The notes: a model not told the origin generated them from the letters alone. A DNA stretch of 32,000 bases from Candidatus Methylomirabilis limnetica (GCF_003044035.1 NZ_NVQC01000022.1:342092-374091); one strand, 5' to 3'. Counted from the stretch's first letter, positions 12,298-32,000 are shown. Numbers and translations are program-made.

Positions 12298-13593
12298 GGC
12301 AGTGTAAATAAATAAAGGTATCAACTTCGCTCTGTAGCTTTTGGTCTTATGACGTAGTTCCAGTCGCCATGAAACTTATTACGTTCCACATTGATGCGCT
12401 TCATCTCTTCATCGCTAACCTTGCGTCCGGTTGGATATTTCCGGCGATCCAATCTACACGTCACTTTCAGCCCCTTCGCCGTGGTCGTCCTGGCGATGAG
12501 ATTGACGATCGTTTCGTAATCCCGCAACGGTTCACCACGCCAATTTGACGTGATAAAGGAAAACAGCCGGTGTTCGATCTTGTTCCATTTGCTGGTGCCG
12601 GGAGGAAAATGACAGACGGAAAGGCACATGCCGGTTTGATCAGCAAACTTCTGCAACTCCAACTTCCAAAGCCGCAACCGCGACCCATTGCTCCCCCCGC
12701 CGTCGGCAGTGATCAGAAGCGTTGCCGTATCCGGATACAGCCGTCGTCCTTCAAAATGCCACCACCCGCGAATCGAGGCCACGGCAAATTCTCCAGTGTC
12801 ATGGTCGGTCCCCACATTGACAAAACCGGCGTTGCGTCCGAGGTCGTAAATACCATACGGATAGGCGCGTGGCACTTCTGGGCTGGGGAAGTCGTGACCT
12901 TGAACTTTTTTGGGCTGCTTTGCCGGAAGCCATTGCTGACCGGCATTGTTGTAGTTGCCGATGAGTTCCTTCTTTTTTGTGTCCACCGAAATCACAGGAA
13001 TGCCTTGCGCCAGGCGTCTCTTTACCGCAGCATTGATGTGCCGAAATTGCGCATCGCGGTCGGGGTGGTCTGTGCCCTCCTCGGTCTTCCGATTGCTCTG
13101 CAGACTATAGTTCAGATCGTGAAGAATCTGCGCGACCTTTGCATGGCTGACCGGGTGCTTGTTCCTGCCAAGCTGCCTGGCAATCGCCCGCGTGCTTTTA
13201 CAAATCCATCGCAGGGGGGACTGTGGATCGCCTCGCGTTTGGCCATCAATCATCTCTTCCAATGCATCCAACAGACGTGGGTCGGAAACGGTGATGGACT
13301 TGCGCCCTGCTCCGGGACAACGGATGCGACCTTCCGATGGCACTATCCCTTCTTGAATTTCGCGGACTCCTTTGGCGATGGCCCGTCGCGACAATCCACA
13401 CGCGCGATGCACCACAGAGATTCCACCAAAGCCCAAACTCACGGCTTCATTAGCAGCCATGATGCGGCGCGTGCGCTCGTCCAAAAGCGGCCACACAGAA
13501 CGAAACTTCCGTCTCAACTCGGGCAGGGTGTTCATGCTCAAGAAGCATACCACCACAACTCATAGATTGATACCTTTATTTATTTACACTGCC
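12298..13593 (-). mobile_element. Intact ISAzo13-family insertion sequence (1296 bp)
   Basis: Perfect 27-bp terminal inverted repeats GGCAGTGTAAATAAATAAAGGTATCAA (12298-12324) and the reverse complement (13567-13593). Flanked by the direct repeat TTA (12295-12297 and 13594-13596). Single full-length transposase ORF. Confidence 0.9.
12321..13556 (-). CDS. ISAzo13-family DDE transposase
   Basis: Characteristic blocks: DPQSPLRW, HPDRDAQFRHIN, PVISVDTKKKELIGNY, PYGIYD, ITADGGGSNGSRLRLWK, HFPPGTSKWNKIEHRLFS, NWRGEPL. The likely true start is ATG 13535 (MNTLPELRRKF). The stop codon lies inside the left IR. Confidence 0.9.
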   Translation of the reverse strand: MVVCFLSMNTLPELRRKFRSVWPLLDERTRRIMAANEAVSLGFGGISVVHRACGLSRRAIAKGVREIQEGIVPSEGRIRCPGAGRKSITVSDPRLLDALEEMIDGQTRGDPQSPLRWICKSTRAIARQLGRNKHPVSHAKVAQILHDLNYSLQSNRKTEEGTDHPDRDAQFRHINAAVKRRLAQGIPVISVDTKKKELIGNYNNAGQQWLPAKQPKKVQGHDFPSPEVPRAYPYGIYDLGRNAGFVNVGTDHDTGEFAVASIRGWWHFEGRRLYPDTATLLITADGGGSNGSRLRLWKLELQKFADQTGMCLSVCHFPPGTSKWNKIEHRLFSFITSNWRGEPLRDYETIVNLIARTTTAKGLKVTCRLDRRKYPTGRKVSDEEMKRINVERNKFHGDWNYVIRPKATERS

Positions 13594-17030: not shown

Positions 17031-17197
17031 ATGAACTACCCCGCAGCAAGCTGCGAGGTATCGTCTTATGTTCTGGCCCGTCATTCCGTGCTTGACACGC
17101 CTGCCCCGTACTTGATACGGGGGAATCCAGTCGGGCCCTCTGGATACCGGCTTCCGCCGGTATGACGAACTCGCGGCAAGCCGCGGGGTATCAACCC
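17031..17197. mobile_element. MITE-like repeat (…ACCCCGCAGCAAGCTGCGAGG… family)
   Basis: Imperfect terminal inverted repeats (gaactaccccgcagc / gccgcggggtatcaa). An inverted, slightly longer copy lies at 24871-25067, with about 85% identity over the shared parts. Confidence 0.55.
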
Positions 17198-19770: not shown

Positions 19771-19800
19771 TTGACGTCATGCCCGTACAGTGAATAGTAT
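19771..19800 (+). promoter_or_regulatory. Candidate sigma70 promoter for HExxH lipoprotein copy 1
   Basis: TTGACG (19771-19776), an 18-nt spacer, then TAGTAT (19795-19800). Confidence 0.4.
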
Positions 19801-19893
19801 GCAAGGCATCTGCGCGTAAACGGCACGTTCTGAAAAGGAGCGGTCATCATATTTGCCGCGAGGAAGTCACGACGGCTGGTCGCTTTTTCCCTG

Positions 19894-20343
19894 TTGCTGC
19901 TACCCATTCTGCTCCAGGGCTGCCTGGGCGGCACCGGGTACCGGGCCTACCCGCGCGCTCGAACCAGTGTCTATACTGACATCTGGAACTTCAGTGACCA
20001 TGAGATTGCCGCTGACCAGGTGGACGTACTCTATCGTCGAGTCGCCCGTCTGATGGCGATCACTCCGAATAATTCCACACCCAGGCCACAGGTGCTGGTG
20101 GTGTCCCCTGCCTACATTCAGGAGAAGTATCTCACTATTCACCCCTTAGCCGCAGCACGGAATGGTACCGCGCTCGCCGTCTACATTCCTCATCAGAACC
20201 AGATCCTGATCCCGGATTTTGACCGCACGCTGCTGACCCATGAGCTGGCTCACTATTTTACCTTCCACTACCTCTCGATCCCCCGATCCGGCTGGGAAGC
20301 GATCGCCGATCAGGTCGTGGATGCTGAAGAGGCGGGAGGCTGA
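19894..20343 (+). CDS. Small HExxH lipoprotein, paralog 1 (5' end probably extends to 19846/19849)
   Basis: The ORF track starts at TTG 19894, which has no SD. The frame is open upstream, and GAAAAGGAGCGG (19831-19842) is followed by ATC ATA (19846-19851). Starting there gives (I)FAARKSRRLVAFSLLLLPILLQGC, a complete lipoprotein signal with lipobox LLQGC. C-terminal THELAHYFTFHY...GWEAIAD motif. Confidence 0.65.
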   Translation: MLLPILLQGCLGGTGYRAYPRARTSVYTDIWNFSDHEIAADQVDVLYRRVARLMAITPNNSTPRPQVLVVSPAYIQEKYLTIHPLAAARNGTALAVYIPHQNQILIPDFDRTLLTHELAHYFTFHYLSIPRSGWEAIADQVVDAEEAGG

Positions 20344-20375
20344 CGGCTGGGCCACCCTTGCCGGCCCAGGATCTG

Positions 20376-20786
20376 CTACGGCGTATAAACAGGAAGCCTG
20401 ACATGGCGGGCCAGCAGATCAAAGTGGTTATCACAGTGAAGAAGACTGCATGAGTAGTGTAAAGCAACAGCAGCGATGAGCTGATCCGTCGCCGGAATGG
20501 ACAAACCCTTACGTCGCAGGGTGTAAGTCATCCGATAGGCCGATCTCCAGACCGATTCCGTAATCGGACATTGCTGGAGCGCCTCCAGGTCTTCGCAGAG
20601 TTCGCGATACTCGCTCTCCGAGCGCGTGCCGCCGACAAGCTCCAGGACGACCATTTCGCACGTGGCCGCGCGCCCCTCACTGAGCAACGCGTGGACTTGT
20701 TGTCTGACAAGAGGATCGCCTGCCGGCCTCAACGCGTGGATCCAAGCCGAGGTATCGATCAGGACCCATCCATCAGCCATCGGCAC
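20376..20786 (-). CDS. vapC: PIN-domain toxin VapC
   Basis: VLIDTSAWIHAL, VVLELVGG, ATDQLIAAVAL and HCDNHFD supply the four acidic PIN positions. Overlaps the antitoxin by 14 nt. Confidence 0.85.
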   Translation of the reverse strand: MPMADGWVLIDTSAWIHALRPAGDPLVRQQVHALLSEGRAATCEMVVLELVGGTRSESEYRELCEDLEALQQCPITESVWRSAYRMTYTLRRKGLSIPATDQLIAAVALHYSCSLLHCDNHFDLLARHVRLPVYTP

Positions 20787-20976
20787 GAAGCCTGGTCAGC
20801 CCTTTTGGGGTGAGCTGAAGAGGGAAACATCCCAGCCTTCCAATCAGACGCTTGACCCGCTGCTGGCGAATAAGCGCCTCCAGAGAGCGATGGATGAGTT
20901 CCTTCTTCGTCTTGGCCTTGCTGAGCGCCTGGGCCTGCTTCATGAGCCTCTCATCAATCTCCAATGTGGTTCTCAT
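20773..20976 (-). CDS. vapB: VapB-type antitoxin (short DUF2191-like)
   Basis: MRTTLEIDERLMKQAQALSKAKTKKELIHRSLEALI... The internal ATG at 20976 has the SD AAAGGAGGA 6 nt upstream, whereas the ORF-track start at 21027 lies inside the promoter. Confidence 0.8.
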   Translation of the reverse strand: MRTTLEIDERLMKQAQALSKAKTKKELIHRSLEALIRQQRVKRLIGRLGCFPLQLTPKGLTRLRADG

Positions 20977-20992
20977 TGAGGGTCCTCCTTTA

Positions 20993-21027
20993 GGCATAAA
21001 AATAGCATAATTTTTATGCCACGACAA
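20993..21027 (-). promoter_or_regulatory. vapBC promoter with palindromic operator
   Basis: Minus strand reads TTGTCG (21027-21022), 17 nt, then TATTTT (21004-20999). An 11-bp perfect inverted repeat, GGCATAAAAAT (20993-21003) and ATTTTTATGCC (21010-21020), overlaps the -10. Confidence 0.5.
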
Positions 21028-21082
21028 GGCCTTGGAGTTCTTTTGAGCTTCAGCGATACGGTACCAGACAGGCCAGAAAGAA

Positions 21083-21424
21083 AGGGAACCTCAGCGCGCC
21101 CCTCTGATCGTGGATACGCGGAACACCTCAAAAGGGGCTCCCTTCCGATCACGTCGTAAAGGCGTAACGGGAGCGCAGACGACGGGTAATTTGTTCGCCC
21201 GAGCGATGTAGTTCCTTCCCGTACGTCGGCGCATCAGCCGATCCCTCACCCCTCTTCAGTCCAGCCTTCTTCTCACAACTCGTTGATACGACAGCGTCCG
21301 CGACTATCCCCAGTCGGACGACTAGCCCTCCGATATCCCTGGTACAGCACTTGCGTAGCCTTCCACCGACGCCCCTCAGCAGCGCCGACACCTCGTGGTG
21401 CCTCGGTGACACTTTTTTTCACCG
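21083..21424. repeat. Conserved non-coding module X, copy A
   Basis: About 85-90% nucleotide identity to 28360-28690 and, for its 3' two thirds, to 26812-27030. Stop codons occur in all three plus-strand frames. The minus-strand ORFs are not frame-conserved between copies. Confidence 0.7.
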
Positions 21425-21557
21425 GAAAGCTGCCCCTCTGTCCTTGATGAGGCGTTGGACAAGTCAGTCAGGCTCCAGCGTCCTGCAGTTGTTTGCTAAC
21501 GTTTTGAAATTGCTGGGCATAATAATGAGTTCGCCAAATGTGTCTTCGAGTACTTGC

Positions 21558-21573
21558 TGGCATGAATCTCGCA
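21558..21573 (+). promoter_or_regulatory. Candidate sigma54 (RpoN) -24/-12 promoter
   Basis: TGGCATGAATCTCGCA compared with the consensus TGGCACGrNNNTTGCW. The GG (21559-60) and GC (21571-72) are at exact consensus spacing. It is identical in the second copy (28927-28942). The predicted start at about 21584 is 11 nt before riboswitch P1. Confidence 0.55.
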
Positions 21574-21594
21574 TTATGTCAGTGGCGTAGAAGG

Positions 21595-21688
21595 TTCCTT
21601 TCCGATAAAGGTAAACCAGTCGTGAGGCTGGGACACAAAGTCGCGGGTCCCAAAAGGGTTGGGACAGCCGGGCTGCCGAAGAAAGGAA
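21595..21688 (+). promoter_or_regulatory. c-di-GMP-I (GEMM-I) riboswitch aptamer
   Basis: P1 is UUCCUUUC (21595-21602) paired with GAAAGGAA (21681-21688). Core: AAAGGUAAACC-AGUC-GUGA-GGCU-GGGACACAAAGUC...GUCCC-aaaaggguu-GGGAC-AGCCGGGCUGCCGAAG. This aligns motif for motif with the Vc2-type consensus GGCAAACC..GNRA..GGGACGCAAAGCC...AGCGGGGUUACCGA. Confidence 0.8.
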
Positions 21689-21741
21689 GAGCGACAATCG
21701 CTCTTTCACGGAAAGTAATCTTCCTGAAAGGAGCGATTGTC

Positions 21742-22239
21742 ATGTTTTCAGCCAAGTCTAAATACTGCCTCGCTGTTCTTCCACTGCTTCTGCTCCCCCT
21801 TCTCCTCCTTCAGGGATGCCTCGGTGGCGTTCAGTATCTCGCCAACCCAGGCCTCCAAACCGGGCTTCACACCGACATCCTCAACTTCAGCGACAGCGAG
21901 ATCGCCCCGGACGCGGTGGACGCACTGTATCTCAAGGTTGCCCGCCTCATGGGCGTCACCCCAGATAGCTCCAAGCCCCGTCCACAGGTGCTCGTCGTTT
22001 CTCCTAACCACATTCATCAAAAGTATCTGATGCTTCGGCCTTCCGCCAAGACACAGAACGGGGTCGCGGTGGCCCTCTATGTCCCCCACGAGAACAGAAT
22101 CCTGATCCCGCATTTTGATCGCGCCCTTTTGACCCATGAGCTGGCTCACTATTTCACGTTCCACTATCTCTCTGCTCCCCGATCTCAGTGGGAAGCAATC
22201 GCGGATAGGGTCGTGGATGCTGAAGAGGCTGGGCATTGA
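21742..22239 (+). CDS. Small HExxH lipoprotein, paralog 2 (intact, riboswitch-controlled)
   Basis: AAAGGAGCG SD, then ATG 21742. MFSAKSKYCLAVLPLLLLPLLLLQGC with a lipobox. C-terminal LLTHELAHYFTFHYLSAPRSQWEAIADRVVDAEEAGH. The ORF-track start at 21538 only translates the riboswitch leader. Confidence 0.75.
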   Translation: MFSAKSKYCLAVLPLLLLPLLLLQGCLGGVQYLANPGLQTGLHTDILNFSDSEIAPDAVDALYLKVARLMGVTPDSSKPRPQVLVVSPNHIHQKYLMLRPSAKTQNGVAVALYVPHENRILIPHFDRALLTHELAHYFTFHYLSAPRSQWEAIADRVVDAEEAGH

Positions 22240-22480
22240 TGCAAGCCACTGAAAATCTCTGCAGGGTGGAATAATGGTGGGAGGGTGGCGGAAGACCAGG
22301 TGGGAGGCTTTCGAATCAATGATAAGATGCGGGGTTCAGGCGTTCATGCCTAACTTGTGGTGATCGAAGCTCCTGTGGGGTATACACTCAGGATGTCCAG
22401 GGACACGAGTCGGTCTGACAGGATCTGATCCACCTCAATCCGTCGCTCACGCGGGACTTAGTCGATCTCCCCACACCTCA

Positions 22481-22918
22481 CTATTCCCCTATCTCGTGGG
22501 GTAGGACCCGGAACCCTTCGCCTTGTGCGGCATCCCGCAGCCGGTGATCAAGACACACAAATTCGCGCCCCTCCGGACGACCCTGAACCCATACAAGCGC
22601 CGAGCCTCACTGAAGAGAGTCCACTGCATGGAGCGGATGAAGCAGGAGCGCCCGCATGGCCTGCTCCCGGACTGCCTGGCTCGGCGCGATCTCTGTCCAG
22701 TCGGCGGCAAGCGCCATGAGGATCGTGCGCGCCTGCGCTTCTGACCGTCTGGACAGGATGCCCTCGCGTCTGAGCCTGGCTAAGGCGGAGCAACACTCGA
22801 TCGGCGTGCCCCACCATGCGGCAATAGCACCATCCTCCTCGGTAAGCCGCATCAGTAAGGGGGTTTGGGGCTCTTCGAGACAGAGTGGGATGATGGCAGA
22901 GGTATCCCAGAACCTCAT
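22481..22918 (-). pseudogene. vapC: vapC (PIN toxin) interrupted by an in-frame TGA at codon 104
   Basis: The ORF stops at 22607-22609 after ...LLHPLHAVDSLQ. The same frame then continues for 41 codons, GSALVWVQGRPEGREFVCLDHRLRDAAQGEGFRVLPHEIGE, to TAG at 22481-22483. That segment is the normal PIN C-terminus and includes the last conserved Asp. Confidence 0.7.
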
Positions 22919-23217
22919 CGCCCCTCTGCCCGTTCTTCCAAGACCGCAGTGATCCCGGCGCCTTGAGGATCAGCGGGGCGCGGCATGTCCCGGAACCCGT
23001 CCGGCAGGTGGAGCGAGCCGATGCGAATGAGCCCGGCGCGGACCATCTCGATCAGGTGGGACGGCAGAAGAGAGTGGTCAGGAGAAAAAGGGATGAGTTT
23101 AGCGATCGGCTTGCCCCGCTCCGTCACAATAATCTCTTCCCCCGCCTTCACCTGGGCGAGGCATGCGCTGAGCGTCGCCTTGAGCTTCGAGACGGCTGTG
23201 CTTTTCGTAATGGACAT
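22915..23217 (-). CDS. Phd/YefM-type antitoxin
   Basis: MSITKSTAVSKLKATLSACLAQVKAGEEIIVTERGKPIAKLIP. Its stop overlaps the vapC start in ATGA (22915-22918). Confidence 0.8.
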   Translation of the reverse strand: MSITKSTAVSKLKATLSACLAQVKAGEEIIVTERGKPIAKLIPFSPDHSLLPSHLIEMVRAGLIRIGSLHLPDGFRDMPRPADPQGAGITAVLEERAEGR

Positions 23218-23239
23218 CCATAGTCACATGTATGCGACT

Positions 23240-23267
23240 GATATAGTCCAATCTTTGACAGAGTCAA
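23240..23267 (-). promoter_or_regulatory. Promoter of the phd-vapC(TGA) operon
   Basis: Minus strand reads TTGACT (23267-23262), 16 nt, then TATATC (23245-23240). A near-palindrome AGTCaCATgtATGcGACT lies between the -10 and the start codon. Confidence 0.5.
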
Positions 23268-23461
23268 GTCCTCCACTTCCCCTCCTGGTTTTTCCAGGTT
23301 TTCCGTGGGCACCCTGACCTTCCAGCATCCCCTCCCCCCACCGAGAGGGAGGGCGCGGGTGGGGGGGTCGTCATTGCCATGCACGATGTCAGCGGATGTC
23401 AAGCACACGCCCATACAGCCCAAGAGCAGCCAGAGGTAACGCTCCGAAACCCTCTGTCACT

Positions 23462-23727
23462 ATATCTCGATCGCACCCTTTTGACCCATGAGCTGGCTCA
23501 CTATTTCACGTTCCACTATGAGCCTGTCCTGCAAACCCTCATGGACCCTTCGACAAGCTCAGGGTGAACGGAATGGGCATTGAAAACATTGACCTTTTTC
23601 CGTTCGTGCTGAGCCTGTCGAAGCATGAACAGGGGTTTGCTGGACAGGCTCCTATCTGCCTGCTCCCCGATCCCAGTGGGAAGTCATCGCCGATAAGGTC
23701 GTCGATGCTGAAGAGTCTGCAAGTTGA
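23462..23727 (+). pseudogene. HExxH lipoprotein paralog 4: 3' fragment split by a MITE
   Basis: LDRTLLTHELAHYFTFHY is followed by a 132-bp insertion, then LPAPRSQWEVIADKVVDAEES. No 5' half, SD or start codon is present. Confidence 0.75.
23520..23651. mobile_element. MITE (132 bp) inserted in the lipoprotein gene fragment
   Basis: 19-bp TIRs with one mismatch: GAGCCTGTCCtGCAAACCC and GGGTTTGCtGGACAGGCTC. Flanking CTAT duplication at 23516-23519 and 23652-23655. Intact paralogs read ...CACTATCT... at this site, with a single CTAT. Confidence 0.75.
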
Positions 23728-23979
23728 GAACGAGAAAAGCTCGGACAAGTTCTTCTGAGATGTCTCGAGTGATCGTGGCGAGATGACGCTCCAGGTTTGT
23801 GCAAACAGCAAGTTATAAGTCTGATTTACACAACTTGGGCGTGGCATGGTACAGACTAAACAATGCGGGGCAGAGCCTGCTATTCCGGCGGGTGGCGTCT
23901 TGACTCACTCAACTCGTAGGATGATCACAAGTCCTTTATTACGGGGAGCACGACACCGGGCTATAATATCGCGACCGTT

Positions 23980-24399
23980 TTATTGATGAACGATCGTAAC
24001 ACCCGCCGCTTCCGCCGCCGTGATGAGACGGCGGTCCAGGGTTGCAAGGGCCAGACCCCTCCGCTCAGCCAGTTCCAGGTAAGCAGCATCATAGGCAGAC
24101 AAGGTGAACCCTTCCGCGAGGCGAGCGAAGCGCCATACCGCATCCGGGTTCAGGTGTACATCGGTCCGAATGGGGAGCATGCCGTAGAGTTCAGCTAAGC
24201 GCATAGCATCAGCCTCAGACAACCTATGTCGGCGTTGCGCAACAGTGACGGCGTTGGCGAGTTCATACCACCACAACGCGGGGACCCACAGAACAGTCTC
24301 CGGAGTAAGCTGGGCGAAGAATCGATCGGCCCGTCTTGACGTCTCATCAGGAAGCCCCCAGGCCAGCGCCATGGAACAGTCGAGTACCGAGTCCATCAA
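23980..24399 (-). CDS. vapC: PIN-domain toxin VapC
   Basis: VLDCSMALAW, WWYELANAV, SAYDAAYLELA, LATLDRRL. Confidence 0.85.
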   Translation of the reverse strand: MMDSVLDCSMALAWGLPDETSRRADRFFAQLTPETVLWVPALWWYELANAVTVAQRRHRLSEADAMRLAELYGMLPIRTDVHLNPDAVWRFARLAEGFTLSAYDAAYLELAERRGLALATLDRRLITAAEAAGVTIVHQ

Positions 24400-24650
24400 G
24401 CGCGGCGGCCCTCCTCGATCAACTCACGAACCTTCAGTACGCCAGGGACCCGCTGACGGATCTCACGGAAGGAGGTCAAGAGCTTGGGCAGATCCAGCAA
24501 CTCCTCCTCTCTCGTGGGAGGAACTAAATGTGCTACCACCTTCCCACGCCGTCGGATGACAAAAGATCTTCCGCGTTCCGTCTCGCGCAGCAACTCGGAA
24601 AGATGGGTTTTTGCCTGAAACGCGCTAACCTCAGTGACCTCACTCGCCAT
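24396..24650 (-). CDS. Phd/YefM-type antitoxin
   Basis: MASEVTEVSAFQAKTHLSELLRETERGRSFVIRRRGKVVAHLVP. ATG 24650 is preceded by GAGGAGG with a 6-nt gap. The ORF-track start at 24668 provides that SD, so it is probably not the start. ATGA overlap with vapC. Confidence 0.8.
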   Translation of the reverse strand: MASEVTEVSAFQAKTHLSELLRETERGRSFVIRRRGKVVAHLVPPTREEELLDLPKLLTSFREIRQRVPGVLKVRELIEEGRRA

Positions 24651-24672
24651 AGAGCACCTCCTCGCCATCTAT

Positions 24673-24708
24673 TTAAACTAGTTTAATCAACTAGTAGGAT
24701 AATCGCAA
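24673..24708 (-). promoter_or_regulatory. Promoter and operator of the phd-vapC operon
   Basis: Minus strand reads TTGCGA (24708-24703), 17 nt, then TAAACT (24685-24680). A perfect 14-bp palindrome TTAAACTAGTTTAA (24673-24686) covers the -10. Confidence 0.5.
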
Positions 24709-24775
24709 GCCTTTTATTTGGCTACACTGAACCACTGCAAAGCTGTGCCCCCTCATCCGCGTCCAAAGTGTCTTA

Positions 24776-25143
24776 GTAACTACTCAGGTAGATAGGCTGA
24801 AGGCTGAAGGCTTTTAGGGGTAAGTCATGCGTGATCATACAAAACTCCGAAAAGGTCTTGAATCTACTGGGGGTTCATTCCCCGCAGCGTGCCGCGAGTG
24901 CGTCATACCGGTGAAAGCCGGTATCCAGAGGGCCAGACTGGATTCCCCCGTATCAAGTACGGGGCATGCGTGTCAAGCACCTGTCTGCGTGCGGAGACGC
25001 ACAGGCAGGCGGAATGACGGGCCAGAACAGGAGACGATACCCAGCAGCTTGCTGCGGGGTAGTTCATTGGCTCGATTCGCGCCTTGCGAGATAATTTAGA
25101 ACCTTCAGTCTTCAGCCTTCAGTCTAAACACCTGAGTAGTTAC
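24776..25143. mobile_element. Composite MITE: outer element with 14-bp TIRs carrying a nested MITE (24871-25067)
   Basis: Outer TIRs GTAACTACTCAGGT (24776-24789) and ACCTGAGTAGTTAC (25130-25143), with subterminal (CTGAAGG)n repeats. The 8-bp flanks are GTGTCTTA (24768-24775) and GTGTCCTA (25144-25151). The inner element is the inverted homolog of 17031-17197. Confidence 0.65.
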
Positions 25144-25326
25144 GTGTCCTATTACGGGGAGCATAAAATAGATTGCACTATCGCACAACATCTCCAGCAA
25201 CTTCCCCCTTTGCTAAATGCTACATGGAACATCTACGATCGCTGTGTCCTATGGCATCGTGGGTTCCCCCATTGTCTGACCTGATCCAGGTCGTCGCGTT
25301 ACTATCGTCTACAACGGGAGGAAGAC

Positions 25327-25602
25327 ATGACTAAGACCGAACTCGCAGAACAGATGGCCCAGGATACCGGTATCAGCAAGGCCATCGCTGAAACCGCACT
25401 TCGTAGCTGTATCGACCGCATCACCAACAGCTTAAAGAATGGGCAGGAGGTGGCAATCGTGGGATTCGGGACCTTCAGCGTGGCGAGTCGAGCTGCCCGG
25501 ACCGGTCGCAATCCGCAAACCGGAGAGCCGATCACGATCAAGGCGTCTCGGGTGCCACGCTTCAAGCCGGGGAAGACCCTGAAGGATGCGGTGAACAGCT
25601 AA
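25327..25602 (+). CDS. hup: HU-family DNA-binding protein
   Basis: MTKTELAEQMAQDTGISKAIAETAL...VAIVGFGTFSVASRAARTGRNPQTGEPITIKASRVPRFKPGKTLKDAVN. GGGAGGAAG SD. Confidence 0.9.
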   Translation: MTKTELAEQMAQDTGISKAIAETALRSCIDRITNSLKNGQEVAIVGFGTFSVASRAARTGRNPQTGEPITIKASRVPRFKPGKTLKDAVNS

Positions 25603-25685
25603 AGGGCATCCCGGGAGCGTTTCGGGAAGTGGCGATCCGTCCGGCCAGCCTGCTCGCCTCCTCTTGAGTTGTGAGGCTTCACAAG

Positions 25686-26060
25686 TTAGGGTTCTTCGTC
25701 CAGTCCCAGGAGATCGAGAAACTCCAAATGACGAAGGACCTTCTCGGCCACCTCGCGACGCAGCTGGCGGTCCGTTAAGCGGCCACAGAGGCGGTGGATG
25801 CGATGGGCGGCGATCGTTCGGATCTGGTGCGGCAGGAGAATCGAATCCAGAGGGTTTCCAGCAGCTCCCGCCGGAAGGAACACCTCAAAAGGGTGCGGCT
25901 GGCGATCCGGCTTGAGCGAGGTGACAGGAAGGACGGTCAGAAGACCAGAGGCACTGTTGAAGGCCTCATTGCTGATCACAAGTACCGGTCGGAGGAAGCC
26001 CTGCTCATGACCGAGGGGGTGCCCCAGGTCCGCTTCCAGCACGGCCCATCGTCGCCGCAT
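25686..26060 (-). CDS. mazF: MazF/PemK-family toxin (endoribonuclease)
   Basis: MRRRWAVLEADLGHPLGHEQGFLRPVLVISNEAFN...LTVLPVTS...DSILLPHQIRTIAAHRI. ATG 26060 lies 5 nt after the antitoxin stop. The longer ORF-track N-terminus overlaps the antitoxin and is unlikely. Confidence 0.8.
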   Translation of the reverse strand: MRRRWAVLEADLGHPLGHEQGFLRPVLVISNEAFNSASGLLTVLPVTSLKPDRQPHPFEVFLPAGAAGNPLDSILLPHQIRTIAAHRIHRLCGRLTDRQLRREVAEKVLRHLEFLDLLGLDEEP

Positions 26061-26065
26061 CGCGG

Positions 26066-26350
26066 TTACACGATCTGTGCGGCGGTCTCGGCATCCGCCC
26101 GGGCGAAGTCCTCGGCGATCGCATCCTGCTCGGTTCGATAGCAAGGATCACTAAAGGCCGCCTGATACTGTCTGAAGGCCTCGGCTTCACGCTGATGTTG
26201 CTGATGGCGCCGGCGAGCCTGCTCCACGAGTCGTTCGATGAGTGCAGCCTTGCTCGGAGCTACACCGTCTTTGACAAGTTCATCGATGCTCTCAACAGTT
26301 GGCTGGTGAAGACGAAAGGTCATTCGTTTGGCGATAATAGGCATATTCAT
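26066..26350 (-). CDS. Ribbon-helix-helix (CopG/MazE-like) antitoxin
   Basis: RMTFRLHQPTVESIDELVKDGVAPSKAALIERLVEQ is an RHH fold signature. AGGAGGGC SD. Sits upstream of mazF. Confidence 0.7.
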   Translation of the reverse strand: MNMPIIAKRMTFRLHQPTVESIDELVKDGVAPSKAALIERLVEQARRRHQQHQREAEAFRQYQAAFSDPCYRTEQDAIAEDFARADAETAAQIV

Positions 26351-26364
26351 GCCCTCCTGCTACC

Positions 26365-26392
26365 AATATAGCACGCTATGAAGGCGTGTCAA
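26365..26392 (-). promoter_or_regulatory. Promoter of the RHH-mazF operon
   Basis: Minus strand reads TTGACA (26392-26387), 16 nt, then TATATT (26370-26365). Confidence 0.55.
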
Positions 26393-26811
26393 GAGTGAAC
26401 GTCATCCCAAAAACAGAGATAGCCATTGCTGAGATACCGCTGTACGCCAATCACCGCCATTTTATGACCCTGTAACCGGTATGCTCAGCCTGGGATGAGG
26501 ATCATGGCTGAGGTTCGCCCGCTCTTCCGGCCTCCTGCGGTCCGCATGCCCTGCTCTGAGGCAGACGCCTCCCATTACGTCATGCGCTGCCCCTCCTCTC
26601 GCTCCCTGGGAGCGTCAGGTCGCCCCCGTCATCGCCCAGCACCGGTGACGGACGCCACGCAAGAGAGCGAGCCGCTCAGCCTCGACCACGAGCCTCAGCA
26701 CCACCTGCCCGAGGCCGTGGAAGCCGGTCTGCCCTGTCTCAGAGTCAGCCAGTCACCCACCGTGTCAGCCTAAAGGCCGAGGCTTTACGCGTCGGAGGGG
26801 TAAGTTTTACA

Positions 26812-27030
26812 AACTGAGCGATGCAGTTCCTTCTCGTGCTTCGACGCATCAGCCAATCCCTCACCCCTCTTCAGTCCAGCCTTCTTCTCGCAACTCGTTG
26901 AGACGAAAGCCTCCGTCACCATCCCCAGTCGGACGACCGGCCCCCTGACATCCATGGTACAGCAATTGCGTAGCTTTCCACCGGCGCACCTCACACCTGC
27001 GTGATGAGCAACGATCGATGACATCTCTCC
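26812..27030. repeat. Conserved non-coding module X, copy B (5'-truncated)
   Basis: Aligns to 28486-28690 and to 21200-21380. Confidence 0.7.
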
Positions 27031-27045
27031 CCCCCCCCATCCCTA

Positions 27046-27137
27046 CCTTCCCCCACCAGGGGGGAAGGAGTGTCAGTTCTCCTCCCCCCATCGTGGGGGA
27101 GGGTGTGTAAGCTCTCCTCCCCCCGTCGCGGGGGAGG
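27046..27137. repeat. Cluster of three GC hairpin repeats (CCTCCCCC-n5/6-GGGGGAGG type)
   Basis: CCTTCCCCC-acca-GGGGGAAGG, CCTCCCCC-catcgt-GGGGGAGG, CCTCCCCCC-gtcgc-GGGGGAGG. The same units occur at 28691-28752, and a related one at about 23327-23370. Confidence 0.6.
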
Positions 27138-27193
27138 ATGAAGGTGGGGGGGATGTTCCGAGCACCGTCACCTTCTAGAAAGGAGCGGTCGTC

Positions 27194-27515
27194 ATCGTCG
27201 CATCCCGCAGGTCACGATCTCTGGTCGCTCTTCACCTGATTCCGCTCCCCGTTCTGCTCCAGGGGTGCCTCGGTAGCGTTCAGTATCTGGCCAGCCCAGG
27301 GGTTCGGACGGGGCTCCACGCCGACATCCTCAACTTCAGCAACCGCGAGATCGCCCCCGAGAAGGTGGACCCAGACCCTGATCCCATATTTCGATCGCAC
27401 CCTTTTGACCCATGAGCTGGCGCACTATTTCACGTTCCACTATCTGTCTGCTCCCCGATCCCAGTGGGAAGCCATAGCGGATAGGGTCGTGGATGCTGAA
27501 GGGTCTGGGCATTGA
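27194..27515 (+). pseudogene. HExxH lipoprotein paralog 3: ATG replaced by ATC, ~200-nt internal deletion causing a frameshift
   Basis: GGAGCGGTCGTC-ATC stands where paralog 2 has GGAGCGATTGTC-ATG. The lipobox LLQGC is retained. Homology jumps at 27370/27371 from ...EKVD to the ...PDPIF region, out of frame. The downstream THELAHYFTFHY-coding sequence is present but not in frame. Confidence 0.75.
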
Positions 27516-27705
27516 TGCAAGCCACTGAAAACCTCTGCGGGATGGAACGGTGGGAGGGTGGCCGAAGATCAGGTGGGCGGCTTTCGAATCAATGACAACG
27601 CGCAAGCGTTCGGGCTGTTCGCTCTGGTATGCAGTTCTCTCGGGTGTGTGCAGGCGAACTCAGGGCATAAGGATCGTGGTGCGTCACGTAAAGATTACGG
27701 TATGA

Positions 27706-27954
27706 CTATCTGTAGATTTCTCGCCGGTGCCCAATGCGGAGGATGAACACCTCGTCCTCGGCGATGTCGTACCGTATGCGATAGGGACCAACTCGCAGGC
27801 GCCATTGGCCGACATGAACTTCCCGGAGCTTCTGGCCCCGGTAGGGATTCTCTTTCAGCGCCTCAATGGCTTCCAATATGCGGCGATGCATTGAAGCATC
27901 GAGCCGGGCGAGGACCTTTCGGACCTCAGGGTGGTAGCGGATCTCGTAGGGCAT
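27706..27954 (-). CDS. RelE/ParE-family toxin
   Basis: MPYEIRYHPEVRKVLARLDASMHRRILEAIEALKENPYRGQKLR...WRLRVGPYRIRYDIAEDEVFILRIGHRREIY. Confidence 0.85.
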   Translation of the reverse strand: MPYEIRYHPEVRKVLARLDASMHRRILEAIEALKENPYRGQKLREVHVGQWRLRVGPYRIRYDIAEDEVFILRIGHRREIYR

Positions 27955-27958
27955 CAGC

Positions 27959-28297
27959 CTAACGGACTACCTTGGCAGCTTGTGGTCTAGCCTTCGCTTC
28001 CTTATTGATAAGGTCCCGCCACATGTCTTCGTCGCGAATATACCGTCCGGCCTCGATCTCTTTTCTGGCCTGCTTGAGGCTCTTCTGGTATTCAGAATCA
28101 AGCTGCTCAAGAGCGGTCTGCGCAAGATCGTCGAGGTCTTCATAATCCTGGATGCTGAGGAGCACGGCTGTCGGGATTCCCGCTTTCTTGATCACGAAGC
28201 GATCACGTTGATTGGCGACGCGACTCAGGATTTCTCCGAGGTGCTGGCGTACCGCTAGCGCCGATATTTCTTTTAAAGCGGTCAGTGTTTTTGCCAT
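27959..28297 (-). CDS. Phd/YefM-type antitoxin
   Basis: LTALKEISALAVRQHLGEILSRVANQRDRFVIKKAGIPTAVLLSIQDYEDL. TAGGAGGA SD. Ends 4 nt before the toxin start. Confidence 0.8.
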   Translation of the reverse strand: MAKTLTALKEISALAVRQHLGEILSRVANQRDRFVIKKAGIPTAVLLSIQDYEDLDDLAQTALEQLDSEYQKSLKQARKEIEAGRYIRDEDMWRDLINKEAKARPQAAKVVR

Positions 28298-28332
28298 ACG
28301 TCCTCCTATGTGTTTAATGGTGATATAGTACT

Positions 28333-28360
28333 ATGCTAGCATGTAGGACACCGATGTCAA
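28333..28360 (-). promoter_or_regulatory. Promoter and operator of the phd-relE/parE operon
   Basis: Minus strand reads TTGACA (28360-28355), 16 nt, then TAGCAT (28338-28333). Palindromes ATGCTAGCAT and TAGTACTA overlap or follow the -10. Confidence 0.5.
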
Positions 28361-28765
28361 GGGAACAACCGTATCCCTCAGCACGCCCTTCTGATCGTAG
28401 AGACGCGGAACGCCTTCAATGGGCCCCCTTCCGACAACGTCCTGAAAGCATAACTGGCGCGCGGACGACGAGTAATTTGTTCGCTCGGGCGATGTAGTTC
28501 CTTCTCGTGCTTCGGCGCATCAGCCGATCCCTCAGTCCTGTTCAGTCCAGCCTTCTTCTCACAACTCGTTGATACGAAAGCCTCTGTCGCCATCCCCAGT
28601 CGGACGACCGCCCCCCGACATCCCTGGTACAGCGCTTGCGTAAGCTTCCACCGGTACGCCTGACACAACTACGCGATGAGCAACGATCAATGACATCTCT
28701 CCTTCCCCCACAAGGGGGGAAGGAGTTTAAGTTCTCCTCCCCCCATCGTGGGGGAGACACCCATT
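28360..28765. repeat. Conserved non-coding module X, copy C (plus GC hairpin repeats 28691-28752)
   Basis: Full-length homolog of 21083-21424. Carries an 11-nt insertion near its 5' end and the hairpin repeat block before the terminator. Confidence 0.7.
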
Positions 28766-28788
28766 GTCACTTCTGTGACATTTTTTTT
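28766..28788 (+). terminator. Candidate intrinsic terminator at the 3' end of module X (plus strand)
   Basis: GTCAC-ttct-GTGAC followed by A plus T8 (28781-28788). Copy A keeps the T7 run (21407-21413) but has a degenerate stem. Confidence 0.45.
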
Positions 28789-28926
28789 CACCTCAAGTCT
28801 GCCCGCTTTTCCTTGAGGAGGCATCAGGTCGTCCAGTCAGTCTGCAGCTATCGGCGGTGATTTTCTAACTTATTGAAAACACAGGGCACACAAATGAGTT
28901 CGCCAAATGTGTCTTCGAGTACTTGC

Positions 28927-28942
28927 TGGCATGAATCTCGCA
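28927..28942 (+). promoter_or_regulatory. Candidate sigma54 (RpoN) -24/-12 promoter, second copy
   Basis: TGGCATGAATCTCGCA, identical to 21558-21573. The flanking sequence is conserved. Confidence 0.55.
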
Positions 28943-28963
28943 CTATGTCAGTGGCGTAGAAGG

Positions 28964-29057
28964 TTCCTTTCCGATAAAGGCAAACCAGTCGTAAGGCTGG
29001 GACGCAACGCCGCGGATCCCAAATGGGTTGGGACAGCCGGGCTACCGAAGAAAGGAA
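28964..29057 (+). promoter_or_regulatory. c-di-GMP-I (GEMM-I) riboswitch aptamer, second copy
   Basis: UUCCUUUC...AAAGGCAAACC-AGUC-GUAA-GGCU-GGGACGCAACGCC...AUCCC-aaauggguu-GGGAC-AGCCGGGCUACCGAAG-GAAAGGAA. The GNRA loop changes GUGA to GUAA relative to copy 1. Confidence 0.8.
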
Positions 29058-29110
29058 GAGCGACACCCGCTCTTTCACGGAAAGCAATCTTCCTGAGAGG
29101 AGCGGTTGTC

Positions 29111-31006
29111 ATGTTTTCAGTCCAGTCGAAATCCTGCCTCAATGTTCTTCCCCTGGCTCTGCTTCGGGTCGCGTTCACCCTAGCCCTCGCGTTTGTCTTT
29201 ACTGGAGTCGTTGGAACTTACGCCGAGGCTGCCACCAGGTTGCCGGACCTCATCGTCTCGGCCGTCAGCGCCCCGTCGACAGCCCAGCCTGGGCAGAGTT
29301 TCGTTCTCTCCGCGTCGATCAAGAATCAGGGTAGGGCCTCTGCTAGCACGGTTCAGGCGGCGTTTTACCTGACGAAGAGCGCTTCAAGCATCACTGGAGC
29401 GACTCTGTTGGGTACTCAGAATGTGGGTTCCCTCTCAGCGGGGGCTGTCCTGGCCCTCACCACAACCCTCTCCATCCCTTCCTCGACTTCGCCGGGAACG
29501 TTCTATGTGGCGACGGTGGCGGATCCAACAAAGATAATAAAAGAGAGCAAAGAAACGAATAACACCCGCGCCTCCAGCGCCATCGCCGTCAAGGACTTAA
29601 CCCCACCTACGATTAGCGGCGTGAATGCTACTGGAATAACTGCCAACAATGCCACCATCACCTGGACGACAGATAAGACGAGCACCTCGCAGGCAGACTA
29701 TGGAACCACCGCTGCCTACGGCAGCGCGACAGCGCCCAACAGTTCCCTTGTGACAAGCCACGCCGTCACATTGAGTGGGTTGACCGCAGGCAAGGCATAT
29801 CACTTCCGAGCACAGTCCAAGGATGCCGCCGGGAATGCGGCGCTATCGAGTGACTATACATTCACAACTGCAACCGCTACGACTACAACTGCAACCGCAG
29901 GAAATACCTACTACGTCGCCACCACCGGCAACGACGGCTACCCCGGCACCGAGACTCAGCCCTTCCGCACGCTCTCACGCGGCGTCAGTGTGCTGATCCC
30001 AGGGGATACGCTCTATGTCATGAGCGGGACCTATGCGGAGTCGCTCATGCACAACATTCCCGCCGGTACCTCCTGGAGTGCTCCGATAACGGTAGCTGCC
30101 GCTCCAGGTCACACCGTGACCCTCAAGCCCGATCTCGGAGCTGAGTTTGTCCTGCACTTCCAGGGCCCCCAGCAGTACATCGTCATCGATGGGCTGATCC
30201 TCGACGGGGCCAATGCCACCTACGGCGTCGTGAAAATTACCTGGTCGGTGTCAGGTGATCCGACGACAGCAGCCCACCATATCCGGCTTCAAAATAGTGA
30301 AGTACGTAACGCCTCGGCACTGGGGGGGCAGGCTTCCGGACAAGGGGTGCTGGTGGCGGGACAGGCCGACTGGAATGAATTCATCAACCTCAACGTCCAT
30401 CATAATGGTCTAACCTCTTTTGACCACGGCTTCTACATCCAGTCCAGTCACAATGTAGTGGAACACTGCTCAGTCCACGACAACGCAGGCTACGGCGTAC
30501 ATCTCTACAATGAGTACGGTCGGCGAACTGACAGCAATGTTGTGAGAAACAATGCGGTCTTCAACAACGGCTGGCGAGGAATCCTCCTCGGTTCAGGCGA
30601 TGGGAACATCGCGTACAATAATGTTGTTTGGGGTAATAGGGGAGGCATCCGCGTCAGCTTTGGTAACCCCACGAACAGTAAGGTCTACAACAATACAACA
30701 TACAACAACACGGACTACGGCATCTTAGTGGAGACTGGTACCGGAGCTATAGCGCAGAACAACATTGCATACATGAATGGCACTCCAGAGATTCAGGATA
30801 CCGCGACCAGCTCCGTCATTGGCCACAATCTCGTAGGCATCGACCCGCAGTTCGTCAATGCGGCAGCGGCCGATTTTCGCCTCCAACCAGGTAGTCTGGC
30901 GATTGATGCCGGCATTGCCGTCAGCCTAGTGACTACGGACATTGCGGGTACTCTGCGCCCGCAGGGGAGAGGCGACGATATTGGGGCCTTTGAGATGATC
31001 CCCTGA
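29111..31006 (+). CDS. Secreted CARDB - fibronectin type III - right-handed beta-helix protein (riboswitch-controlled)
   Basis: GAGAGGAGCGG SD, then ATG 29111. Signal peptide MFSVQSKSCLNVLPLALLRVAFTLALAFVFTGVVGTYAEA|A. CARDB-like PDLIVSAVSAPSTAQPGQSFVLSASIKNQG. FN3-like PPTISGVNATGITANNATITWTTDKTSTSQADYG...YHFRAQSKDAAGN. Parallel beta-helix repeats NNAVFNNGWRGILLGSGDGNIAYNNVVWGNRGGIRVS...YNNTTYNNTDYGILVE. Confidence 0.8.
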   Translation: MFSVQSKSCLNVLPLALLRVAFTLALAFVFTGVVGTYAEAATRLPDLIVSAVSAPSTAQPGQSFVLSASIKNQGRASASTVQAAFYLTKSASSITGATLLGTQNVGSLSAGAVLALTTTLSIPSSTSPGTFYVATVADPTKIIKESKETNNTRASSAIAVKDLTPPTISGVNATGITANNATITWTTDKTSTSQADYGTTAAYGSATAPNSSLVTSHAVTLSGLTAGKAYHFRAQSKDAAGNAALSSDYTFTTATATTTTATAGNTYYVATTGNDGYPGTETQPFRTLSRGVSVLIPGDTLYVMSGTYAESLMHNIPAGTSWSAPITVAAAPGHTVTLKPDLGAEFVLHFQGPQQYIVIDGLILDGANATYGVVKITWSVSGDPTTAAHHIRLQNSEVRNASALGGQASGQGVLVAGQADWNEFINLNVHHNGLTSFDHGFYIQSSHNVVEHCSVHDNAGYGVHLYNEYGRRTDSNVVRNNAVFNNGWRGILLGSGDGNIAYNNVVWGNRGGIRVSFGNPTNSKVYNNTTYNNTDYGILVETGTGAIAQNNIAYMNGTPEIQDTATSSVIGHNLVGIDPQFVNAAAADFRLQPGSLAIDAGIAVSLVTTDIAGTLRPQGRGDDIGAFEMIP

Positions 31007-31073: not shown

Positions 31074-31219
31074 CTGCAAGTGGTCCCTTTTATTCCGCGT
31101 CTGGCCCGCATTCGCTTAGGGGCTGTCTGAGGCAGTCACCACTGGCGCTTCATCAGGCTCCGCGTCGGGAGACGAGACTCTCCTCCCGCAGGGGTGCACG
31201 ACAGATTTTTGAGATAAGG

Positions 31220-32000
31220 TCATCCGGCAGCCGCCGCCGCTGACCGCCGTTCCCAGAAGTCCTCGAAGCGGCCGCTGAGTTTGGCGCAACGCAGGGCGAT
31301 GATGGCATTGGCCCCGCGGACGGTCCAGTGCATGCCGGCGCGCTTGAGGCGGGTGCCTATGGCTACCTTGCAGCCCGCTTCTACGACACCGGTCGACGTG
31401 CAAAGCCCATGGGCCAGAAACTCGGGGTAGCGCATGCGGTCTCGATTCCGCTCGACGTAATCCACGCACTTCCTGGCCTCGTCGTGCGTTGCAGTGTGGG
31501 TGCGCAGCGCTTGGAGCAGCGCGTCGAGCCGACCTTCGTCGAGTTCGTCGCAGCGTTGCCGCCTCCACTGTCCGGCTAACTCGCTCGTCGGTCCGTAGAT
31601 CGCCTTGCCTACGTCGCTCAGATGCTGCTTGGCATGGAAGCGATCGACGATCTGGACGGCGTCGGGGAAATACTCGTCGGCCATGTTCCAAATCCAGGGA
31701 GCCCCATCACCGAGAACGGCCTGCCGGCCGGCCCGTTCGAAGCCGCGTCGCGTCGCTTCACGCTCGACCCGCGCCGCAAACGCGCTGGGCTGCTCGTCGA
31801 CATCCCGTTGCGCCGCACTCTCGATCGCCGCTGAGTACGTGACCGATCCCTTATCCCGCATCGGGGTTCCATCGGCGGCCCGTCCTTCGGCGCTCCAGAC
31901 CGTACAGAGTTTGACCTCCCGTGTCTTCGCCGACCCTTCGGCCTGCTTGCCGGCACGTCCCACCAGTTCCTGTCGGCGTATCGGGACACCCGTACCGTCC
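31220..32000 (-). CDS. ISKra4-family transposase, C-terminal part (5' end outside the window)
   Basis: The frame is open to the window edge: DGTGVPIRRQELVGRAGKQAEGSAKTREVKLCTVWSAE...AVLGDGAPWIWNMADEYFPDAVQIVDRFHAKQHL...RMRYPEFLAHGLCTSTGVVEAGCK. The GTG at 31963 in the ORF track is internal. Confidence 0.75.
   Translation of the reverse strand, partial: DGTGVPIRRQELVGRAGKQAEGSAKTREVKLCTVWSAEGRAADGTPMRDKGSVTYSAAIESAAQRDVDEQPSAFAARVEREATRRGFERAGRQAVLGDGAPWIWNMADEYFPDAVQIVDRFHAKQHLSDVGKAIYGPTSELAGQWRRQRCDELDEGRLDALLQALRTHTATHDEARKCVDYVERNRDRMRYPEFLAHGLCTSTGVVEAGCKVAIGTRLKRAGMHWTVRGANAIIALRCAKLSGRFEDFWERRSAAAAAG

Follow-up and report, generated by a model that had tools for sequence, protein, structure and literature searches.

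Unrelated toxin–antitoxin modules among duplicated sigma54–riboswitch units in Candidatus Methylomirabilis limnetica

Toxin–antitoxin (TA) modules are well known to accumulate at variable chromosomal spots, and the stabilisation of cassette arrays by TA modules in chromosomal integrons is established. Here, we describe an array in which TA modules alternate with copies of a riboswitch-controlled unit, at positions 20344–29110 of a 32,000-nt stretch of DNA (the window) from Candidatus Methylomirabilis limnetica (GCF_003044035.1, NZ_NVQC01000022.1:342092-374091), a member of the phylum Methylomirabilota (candidate division NC10). The literature yielded nothing on TA arrays in Methylomirabilis, nor on the ligand of the GGC-variant riboswitch that the units carry. 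The window has been compared with about 20 related loci (labelled L0xx), of which a scan of a genome collection gave three short ones and a metagenome scan 11. The comparison argues that a conserved Methylomirabilota locus next to an exosortase/exopolysaccharide (EPS) cluster has probably expanded in this lineage, and that the junctions of the resulting array have been colonised by TA modules.

The element order put forward in a preliminary description of this sequence was recovered in full, with every item present at its position. A lipoprotein gene is followed by TA1 (VapBC), a complete regulatory cassette with a second lipoprotein gene, TA2 (Phd and a PIN-like toxin), a lipoprotein gene fragment split by a miniature inverted-repeat transposable element (MITE), TA3 (Phd and PIN), a MITE-like element with an HU gene, TA4 (RHH and PemK/MazF), a partial cassette with a lipoprotein pseudogene, TA5 (Phd and ParE/RelE), and a third cassette ahead of a gene encoding a secreted beta-helix protein. 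The same description had placed all TA operons on the minus strand and all cassette copies on the plus strand, and had drawn the TA modules from different families that were not co-duplicated with the cassettes; family matches and repeats agree with these orientations within the window, and the TA pairs share no nucleotide similarity. The uniform orientation of the TA modules does not extend beyond this genome, as at least four TA modules of relatives are on the plus strand. By our own calculation, strict alternation of five TA modules with four other items would be expected at about 1/126 under random ordering. That all five lie on the minus strand would happen by chance in about 1/16 of cases and may be a historical accident.

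The full repeated unit is about 1.1 kb long and comprises an element termed X with a sigma54-type promoter (P1), an enhancer palindrome, a second sigma54-type promoter (P2), a riboswitch aptamer, a hairpin over the ribosome-binding site (RBS) and the lipoprotein gene. Repeat searches and alignment place three plus-strand copies of X in the window, with starts near 21089/21182, 26816 and 28376 and mutual identities of 84–87%. Copy 1 (21089–21380) consists of an X-extension (21089–21181) and an X-core (21182–21380), copy 2 extends over 26816–27136 including GC-rich, repetitive extragenic palindromic (REP)-like hairpins (X core element 26816–26990), and copy 3 opens cassette 3 (28376–29110), in which the element with P1 occupies 28469–28654. 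An alignment of nine X copies from the window and its relatives reveals two strongly conserved blocks, namely GAGCGATGTAGTTCCTTC and, about 135 nt downstream, the sigma54-type motif TGGTAC-N5-TTGC (P1). The motif occurs at 21340–21354 (as TGGTACAGCACTTGC), 26955–26969 and 28625–28639; these are the sole three matches in the window, with 0.08 expected, and the motif is kept in six relatives (L003, L005, L006, L008, L011 and L013). X can therefore most simply be read as a complete upstream sigma54 promoter region. A protein-coding X was rejected, the minus-strand open reading frames (ORFs) through it being conserved no further than the DNA itself, and an Rfam search at E<=1 for a known RNA gave nothing credible.

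The second promoter, P2, with the motif TGGCATGAATCTCGCA, is found at 21558–21573 and 28927–28942 (two matches in the window versus 0.08 expected), in each case 28 nt upstream of an aptamer, and takes the form TGGCAC-N5-TTGC in L003 and L005. Both P2 copies and all three P1 copies have the canonical spacing of the -24 GG and -12 GC elements. With P1 inside X and P2 downstream, each live cassette therefore carries two tandem sigma54-type promoters ahead of its riboswitch. The enhancer-like region of cassette 1 (21381–21600, plus strand) contains a GACAC/GTGAC(A) repeat at about 21387–21425; in relatives, the sequence between P1 and P2 holds TGTCAC-N4-GTGACA palindromes, which are candidate sites for an enhancer-binding protein. 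Cassette 3 has the same layout on the plus strand, with P1, REP-like hairpins at 28664–28756, an enhancer-like region, P2, aptamer and RBS hairpin, while X copy 2 keeps its P1 motif and has lost the downstream enhancer region, P2 and aptamer by deletion. GC-rich hairpins of the CCTTCCCCCACCAGGGGGGAAGG type also occur between X and the enhancer region at 27046–27136 and 28699–28756, in cassettes 2 and 3 and not in cassette 1, and hairpins like CCCCCTTT...AAAGGGGG are present in L003 and L006. The REP-hairpin insertion common to cassettes 2 and 3 marks them as sister copies.

Both live cassettes carry an aptamer of the c-di-GMP-I-GGC family (RF03167), at 21601–21681 (69.8 bits) and 28970–29050 (62.6 bits); each scores above the gathering score of 59 and covers the model from 1 to 80 of 80. 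Among 15 aptamers of this locus family, 10 of the 18 base pairs show compensatory double changes, and the aptamer RNA is therefore under selection. The long hairpin that follows the aptamer in cassette 1 (region 21601–21741) is predicted to pair GACAATCGCTC with the Shine–Dalgarno and start region (z = -4.3), a fold which suggests translational control. Over 300 nt, the leaders of the two live cassettes (21465–21764 and 28834–29133) are 88% identical. The aptamer at 28970–29050 contains two non-standard pairs according to cmscan, one of which is C-U where the other copies in the 15-aptamer alignment have A-U. The copy in question may be drifting, or weaker than the others. A further RF03167 aptamer was observed in L009 (1492–1573, minus strand), ahead of an unrelated 477-aa gene near a tRNA gene and about 5 kb from the lipoprotein locus, and the GGC-variant regulon of the phylum therefore reaches beyond the two genes studied here.

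The lipoprotein genes controlled by, or derived from, these units are all on the plus strand and differ in their state of preservation. Paralog 1 (19894–20343) encodes a protein with the lipobox LLQGC and an HExxH motif; it has no aptamer, and the sequence ahead of it (19771–19893) retains an RBS relic of the riboswitch leader, AAAGGAGCGGTCATCATA, with an ATG-to-ATA change, and has a sigma70-like promoter at 19771–19800. In L006, this stretch has received an insertion of the first MITE (MITE1, see below) and a new start codon. Paralog 2 (21742–22239) is followed by about 90 bp of duplicated downstream sequence, to 22330. A 3′ fragment of a further copy lies at 23462–23519 and 23652–23719, split by the first MITE, and copy 3 (27203–27598) is a pseudogene with an ATG-to-ATC change, a 176-bp internal deletion (corresponding to 21925–22100) and neither promoter nor aptamer. 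Sixty-two homologs of the lipoprotein were detectable, all with at least 55% identity, and the named ones come from metagenome-assembled genomes of NC10/Methylomirabilota; the family is restricted to this group. Besides the lipobox, the residues H132, E133, H136 and E151 are invariant. No Pfam family matched the lipoprotein, and its AlphaFold model (pLDDT 82.8) shows a weak likeness to gluzincin peptidase domains (M9 collagenases, E 0.014, TM 0.4). Cassette 3 precedes a gene for a secreted CARDB/fn3/right-handed beta-helix protein (29111–31006, plus strand), whose first 17 or so codons resemble the lipoprotein signal peptide. The lipoprotein-like N-terminus is found in the window and L003 (MFSVQSK, MYSAKFT), but neither in L005 (MKTTVAF) nor at loci of the operon type described below.

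Each TA operon places the antitoxin gene first, with overlaps of 4–8 bp between the two genes in TA1 to TA3 and gaps of 4–5 bp in TA4 and TA5. On the minus strand, these are TA1 (the PIN toxin VapC, 20376–20786; VapB, 20773–20976 or to 21027), TA2 (PIN-like toxin, 22481–22918; Phd, 22915–23217), TA3 (PIN toxin, 23980–24399; Phd, 24396–24668), TA4 (MazF/PemK, 25686–26060; RHH, 26066–26350) and TA5 (ParE/RelE toxin, 27706–27954; Phd, 27959–28297). The five pairs have the domains expected of them by Pfam and NCBIfam; matches to PIN, VapB_antitoxin, PhdYeFM, PemK_toxin, RHH_1 and ParE_toxin exceed the Pfam gathering score, with two exceptions, both in TA2. Its antitoxin (Phd2) reaches 29.7 against a cut-off of 29.8, and its truncated toxin (PIN2), interrupted by an in-frame TGA at 22607–22609, has no Pfam match; if the TGA is read through, the acidic PIN residues D5, E41, D99 and D123 are present. 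L011 and L021 have TTA (Leu) at this codon, one T-to-G change away; the TGA also appears in an independent assembly, and the antitoxin is intact. To judge from these alignments the TGA is a recent nonsense mutation, and owing to it the toxin is probably inactive. Protein similarity among the TA pairs is limited to the Phd antitoxins, at 33–34%; together with the lack of nucleotide similarity, this identifies the modules as independent acquisitions rather than co-duplicated copies. Sigma70-like promoters ahead of TA4 (26392–26365) and TA5 (28360–28333), and palindromes upstream of TA1 (within 20977–21088), TA3 and TA5 that are predicted operators, are matches to sequence patterns. Base composition was uninformative as to a foreign origin of the modules, which have 55–63% GC compared with 57.7% for the window.

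A comparison with related genomes for the presence and absence of individual cassettes, the check that the preliminary description had proposed, shows that the unit junctions carry different cargo in different genomes, and the hot spot of repeated duplication and deletion suspected there is borne out by L003, L006, L011, L013 and L021. In L013, the stop codon of lipoprotein-1 is followed by X-core within about 10 bp; vapBC is absent, and the units abut head to tail. L006 (92% identical) has lipoprotein-1, vapCB and the cassette with lipoprotein-2 as in the window, and continues downstream of lipoprotein-2 with the sequence that follows the lipoprotein fragment in the window; TA2 is therefore either absent there or has been removed by recombination between copies. 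In L011 (95%), an X copy comes immediately after lipoprotein-2 and TA2, at a place where the window has just the 3′ lipoprotein fragment. L021 keeps the 3′ end of VapC1, while a plus-strand module of a 57-aa antitoxin and a 143-aa PIN protein takes the place of the remainder of TA1, of cassette 1 and of most of lipoprotein-2 (its 5′ part); this module is also found beside a lipoprotein fragment in L010. The spacer of L003 holds a VapC1 remnant, an orphan RHH gene, the first MITE, a lipoprotein fragment and a further X, and a plus-strand VapBC has entered precisely at the border of X-extension and X-core. L003 also encodes, within 12451–15538, a 526-aa Fic protein matching PADLOC PDC-S24 (E 1.5e-187) and a 396-aa AAA_14/DUF4143 ATPase matching PDC-S01 (E 1.6e-98), which are candidate single-gene phage-defence systems. 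The spacer of L005, by comparison, contains just two small ORFs; no family was detected for these, nor for the ORF at 26495–26773 of the window. Overall, remnants of VapC1 persist in L003, L012 and L021, TA modules of other families occupy unit junctions on the plus strand in L003, L010, L012 and L021, and the TA modules, which turn over and decay, are the most variable part of the locus.

The relatives also differ in how the lipoprotein and beta-helix genes are arranged. The distant loci L014, L015 and L016 have one aptamer, and the stop codon of the lipoprotein gene overlaps the start of the CARDB gene, so that the two genes make up one translationally coupled operon. L009 likewise has a single upstream aptamer and the lipoprotein gene, followed by a CARDB-like match after a gap of about 20–60 bp instead of an overlap. 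L003 and L005 have the two genes apart, each with its own aptamer and a perfect TGGCAC-N5-TTGC promoter; the two-riboswitch arrangement is thus older than had been implied in the preliminary description. Between these two loci, promoter regions of the same gene are more alike (70%) than those of the two genes within a genome (52%), and the split there is therefore old. The two cassettes of the window, in turn, share 76% identity over the enhancer/P2 part and 86% over X, compared with about 40–48% to either type in L003, which indicates that the X-to-leader cassette before the beta-helix gene of the window would be a later duplication or conversion in this lineage.

MITE insertion has contributed to the erosion of the array, which also holds dispersed repeats. 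MITE1 (23520–23651, 132 bp), the element that splits the lipoprotein fragment, has 19-nt terminal inverted repeats and further copies in L003 and L006; the MITE-like MITE2 (24776–25143) has 37-nt terminal inverted repeats and another copy at 17031–17197. Terminal inverted repeats, the lack of an ORF, several copies and insertion into other sequence are features found for these elements, as is usual for MITEs. Between MITE1 and TA3 lies a remnant (23741–23901) of the upstream and 5′ region of the AAA_14/DUF4143 (PDC-S01) gene, 83% identical to L003, in which the gene is intact. A sequence next to it had been taken for a decayed copy of a TA promoter: the match is real, with 27 of 32 positions identical between 23909–23940 and 24687–24718, a value reached by none of 500 shuffles, but the two copies flank TA3 as direct repeats. 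The bracket pairs 23909–23950 with 24687–24718 plus 25146–25163, the second (upstream) copy being split by 427 bp that include MITE2. Part of this direct repeat belongs to a dispersed REP-like element, which takes in 25150–25217 and is also located at both ends of contig L006. The gene for the HU-family DNA-binding protein (25327–25602, plus strand) lies between MITE2 and TA4.

Upstream of the array, positions 1–19.7 kb of the window are taken up by the polysaccharide/exosortase cluster, with GT2 and GT4 glycosyltransferases, an exosortase EpsH fragment, a PA14 protein, a radical-SAM enzyme, a PTPS-related membrane protein and a collagen-repeat protein, the last encoded at 1549–2718. The EpsH profile was matched in its C-terminal half only, by a 170-aa ORF (4973–5485) that overlaps a 224-aa ORF without family (4360–5034); the exosortase gene at 4360–5485 may be split or frameshifted. 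An intact ISAZ013-type DDE transposase gene (12321–13556) interrupts the cluster, and a frameshifted, fragmentary UPF0236/ISL3-like transposase closes the window (31116–32000), exactly where an independent 130-kb contig from the European Nucleotide Archive (ENA) stops.

The history that we propose starts from an ancestral locus in which a sigma54 promoter and a c-di-GMP-I-GGC riboswitch would have controlled an HExxH lipoprotein and a CARDB/fn3/beta-helix exoprotein. The 1.1-kb unit would then have been duplicated in tandem several times, with unequal homologous recombination as the likely mechanism, and one copy of its regulatory part, as its homology shows, came to lie before the beta-helix gene. 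The inter-unit junctions, which would be the sole harmless places for insertion, became landing sites for type II TA modules of separate origin and, among the relatives, for candidate defence genes as well, as presence and absence among the loci shows. Finally, the cargo is replaced and decays in place, and recombination between units, MITE insertion and point mutation erode some of the copies. Such decay is visible in the PIN2 nonsense codon, the VapC1 remnants, the lipoprotein-3 pseudogene and the orphan lipoprotein fragment. Exchange between strains probably uses the repeated cassettes as homology, and we infer that the TA modules are mainly selfish passengers, which may slow deletions.

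Several other explanations have to be considered. An assembly artefact, in which repeats have been collapsed or duplicated, had been named in the preliminary description as a possible undoing of its interpretation, and indeed related contigs are often short and end in repeats. However, the array is collinear in contigs of at least seven samples at 97.8–100% identity, the same order is recovered at 99.9% identity in the 130-kb ENA contig, and JGI, ENA and Logan contigs of other samples span several junctions. Across 12 kb, the sole structural difference between the window and the ENA assembly L001 is a 29-bp indel within MITE2 (24980–25010), and the repeat copies, at just 66–92% identity, are easy to resolve. 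Because independent assemblies from at least seven samples reproduce it, the array is not an artefact, an idea we regard as hardly credible, and it is fixed within the species. The same collinearity speaks for addiction, by which the loss of a TA module through recombination between its flanking repeats would kill the cell, so that the TA modules would preserve the duplicated cassettes; they do lie between direct repeats of 0.2–1.2 kb that would otherwise recombine. Against this stand the TA2 toxin, probably already inactivated, the TA remnants and TA-less junctions of relatives, the deletions in cassette 2, lipoprotein-3 and the lipoprotein fragment beside intact TA modules, and the fact that the TA modules are the locus's most variable component, which leaves addiction an unlikely, if tenable, account. 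A role in defence, with the spacer as a conserved slot for anti-phage systems, the TA modules acting as abortive-infection modules and phage driving the turnover, fits the variation of content between conserved flanking genes that defines a hot spot, the Fic protein and ATPase in the L003 spacer, and the remnant of the ATPase upstream region in the window. Yet these PDC families are candidate defence systems only, PADLOC models gave no match for the four intact toxins of the window, the HU protein or the lipoprotein (the TGA-interrupted PIN2 was not scanned), and the window showed no remnants of a phage or an integrase; we consider this role possible but doubtful.

Site-specific capture of TA cassettes by a recombinase, in the manner of an integron or otherwise and for instance at the left edge of X-core, is very unlikely. 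The junction between X-extension and X-core (about 21181/21182) does recur as a boundary in the window, L003 and L013, each spacer contains a single TA module, and TA3 lies between direct repeats of 32–42 bp. However, a repeat search, pairwise local alignment with shuffles and folding, all without a dedicated attC model, found no common sequence or attC-like repeat or hairpin at the ten TA borders, the TA3 direct repeat being the only significant pair. No integrase was present among the ORFs scanned in the 32-kb window, which holds DDE transposases only. The preliminary description had likewise seen neither, and their absence makes an integron-type mechanism unlikely. In addition, the TA modules have putative promoters of their own, relatives contain TA modules in either orientation, and insertions often come with deletions of differing extent. 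Functional coupling, in which riboswitch-controlled transcripts would run on past the lipoprotein genes into the toxin genes that face them and so tie TA expression, through antisense RNA, to the level of a second messenger, also strikes us as highly improbable. All five TA operons converge on, or sit downstream of, plus-strand cassette units, and no canonical terminator was found that would separate these units from the facing toxin genes in TA1, TA2 and TA5; but the orientation is not kept in relatives, cassette 2 has no P2 promoter and no aptamer, and neither TA3 nor TA4 follows a live cassette.

The expansion of a conserved locus with TA modules landing at its junctions is the reading that we favour, and there are points that weigh against it too. 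Most of the related loci are short metagenome contigs, and no complete second array is among the loci compared. Some junctions in relatives could be assembly chimeras; L028, with an apparent variant downstream of ParE, is probably one, and was set aside as a chimeric short contig since its tail has a much higher GC content and matches nothing else that was fetched. The direction from operon to split state rests on parsimony rather than a rooted tree. TA3 alone has flanking direct repeats, the mode of entry of the TA modules is a proposal, and a recombinase beyond the 3′ end of the window is possible, the search having covered the 32-kb window. Lastly, one TA module per spacer would have a chance of about 4% for independent insertions (our own calculation), a mildly non-random pattern that hints at more order than random landing. 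The pattern would fit an ancestral module that was replaced where it stood, with the repeated cassettes as homology arms. Taken further, the cassettes as portable homology arms would form a self-renewing, integrase-free landing pad, from which TA and defence modules, one per spacer, are swapped between Methylomirabilota strains by homologous recombination, an extension that we put forward tentatively and think rather unlikely. If true, the locus would be functionally analogous to an integron array, with homologous recombination as its basis, and the duplication of the cassette would keep the downstream gene of the split operon under second-messenger control.

The locus provides a comparatively documented case of TA modules that, as probable selfish passengers, colonise the borders between tandem copies of a regulatory unit and turn over there, and of a split operon in which each half keeps riboswitch control by way of a duplicated promoter-to-leader cassette. 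It also gives a genetic context to the little-studied GGC variant of the c-di-GMP-I riboswitch, namely tandem sigma54-type promoters, an NC10-restricted HExxH lipoprotein, a beta-helix exoprotein and an exosortase/EPS cluster. This context could guide tests of ligand and function in Methylomirabilis, which is genetically hard to study.

Set beside known systems, the array recalls sedentary chromosomal integrons such as the Vibrio superintegron, in which unrelated type II TA modules likewise lie among repeated units of a variable array and a stabilising role has been proposed. In contrast with these, no IntI and no attC site were found in the window, the TA modules have putative promoters of their own and are opposite to the repeated units (with both orientations in relatives), and the repeats are units of promoter, riboswitch and paralog, whereas integron cassettes are promoterless. 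Hot spots and defence islets share with it conserved flanks (here the EPS genes with the lipoprotein on one side and the beta-helix gene on the other) and a varying content of TA modules, Fic PDC-S24, AAA_14 PDC-S01, MITEs and insertion sequences; unlike in those, the flanking unit is here duplicated inside the hot spot, which itself sits within what is an operon in other lineages, and the window itself yielded no complete defence system of a known kind. In multi-copy c-di-GMP-I (GEMM-I) regulons, too, several homologous leaders per genome precede genes for surface or secreted proteins, as the RF03167 aptamers do here, but in this locus the aptamer stands behind sigma54-type promoters and the whole promoter-to-leader cassette has been duplicated locally. 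Paralog arrays shaped by tandem duplication and gene conversion resemble it in the head-to-tail units of L013, in hybrid deletion junctions such as that of L006, and in that the regulatory parts of copies within a genome are more similar than orthologs; they differ in that selfish modules have here colonised the inter-unit junctions and given rise to the alternating pattern. The components all belong to known families, and the array is no new type of system. What is particular to it is that the hot spot lies inside a former operon, that the flanking regulatory cassette is itself the repeat, and that a comparative series documents the replacement of one TA module by another.

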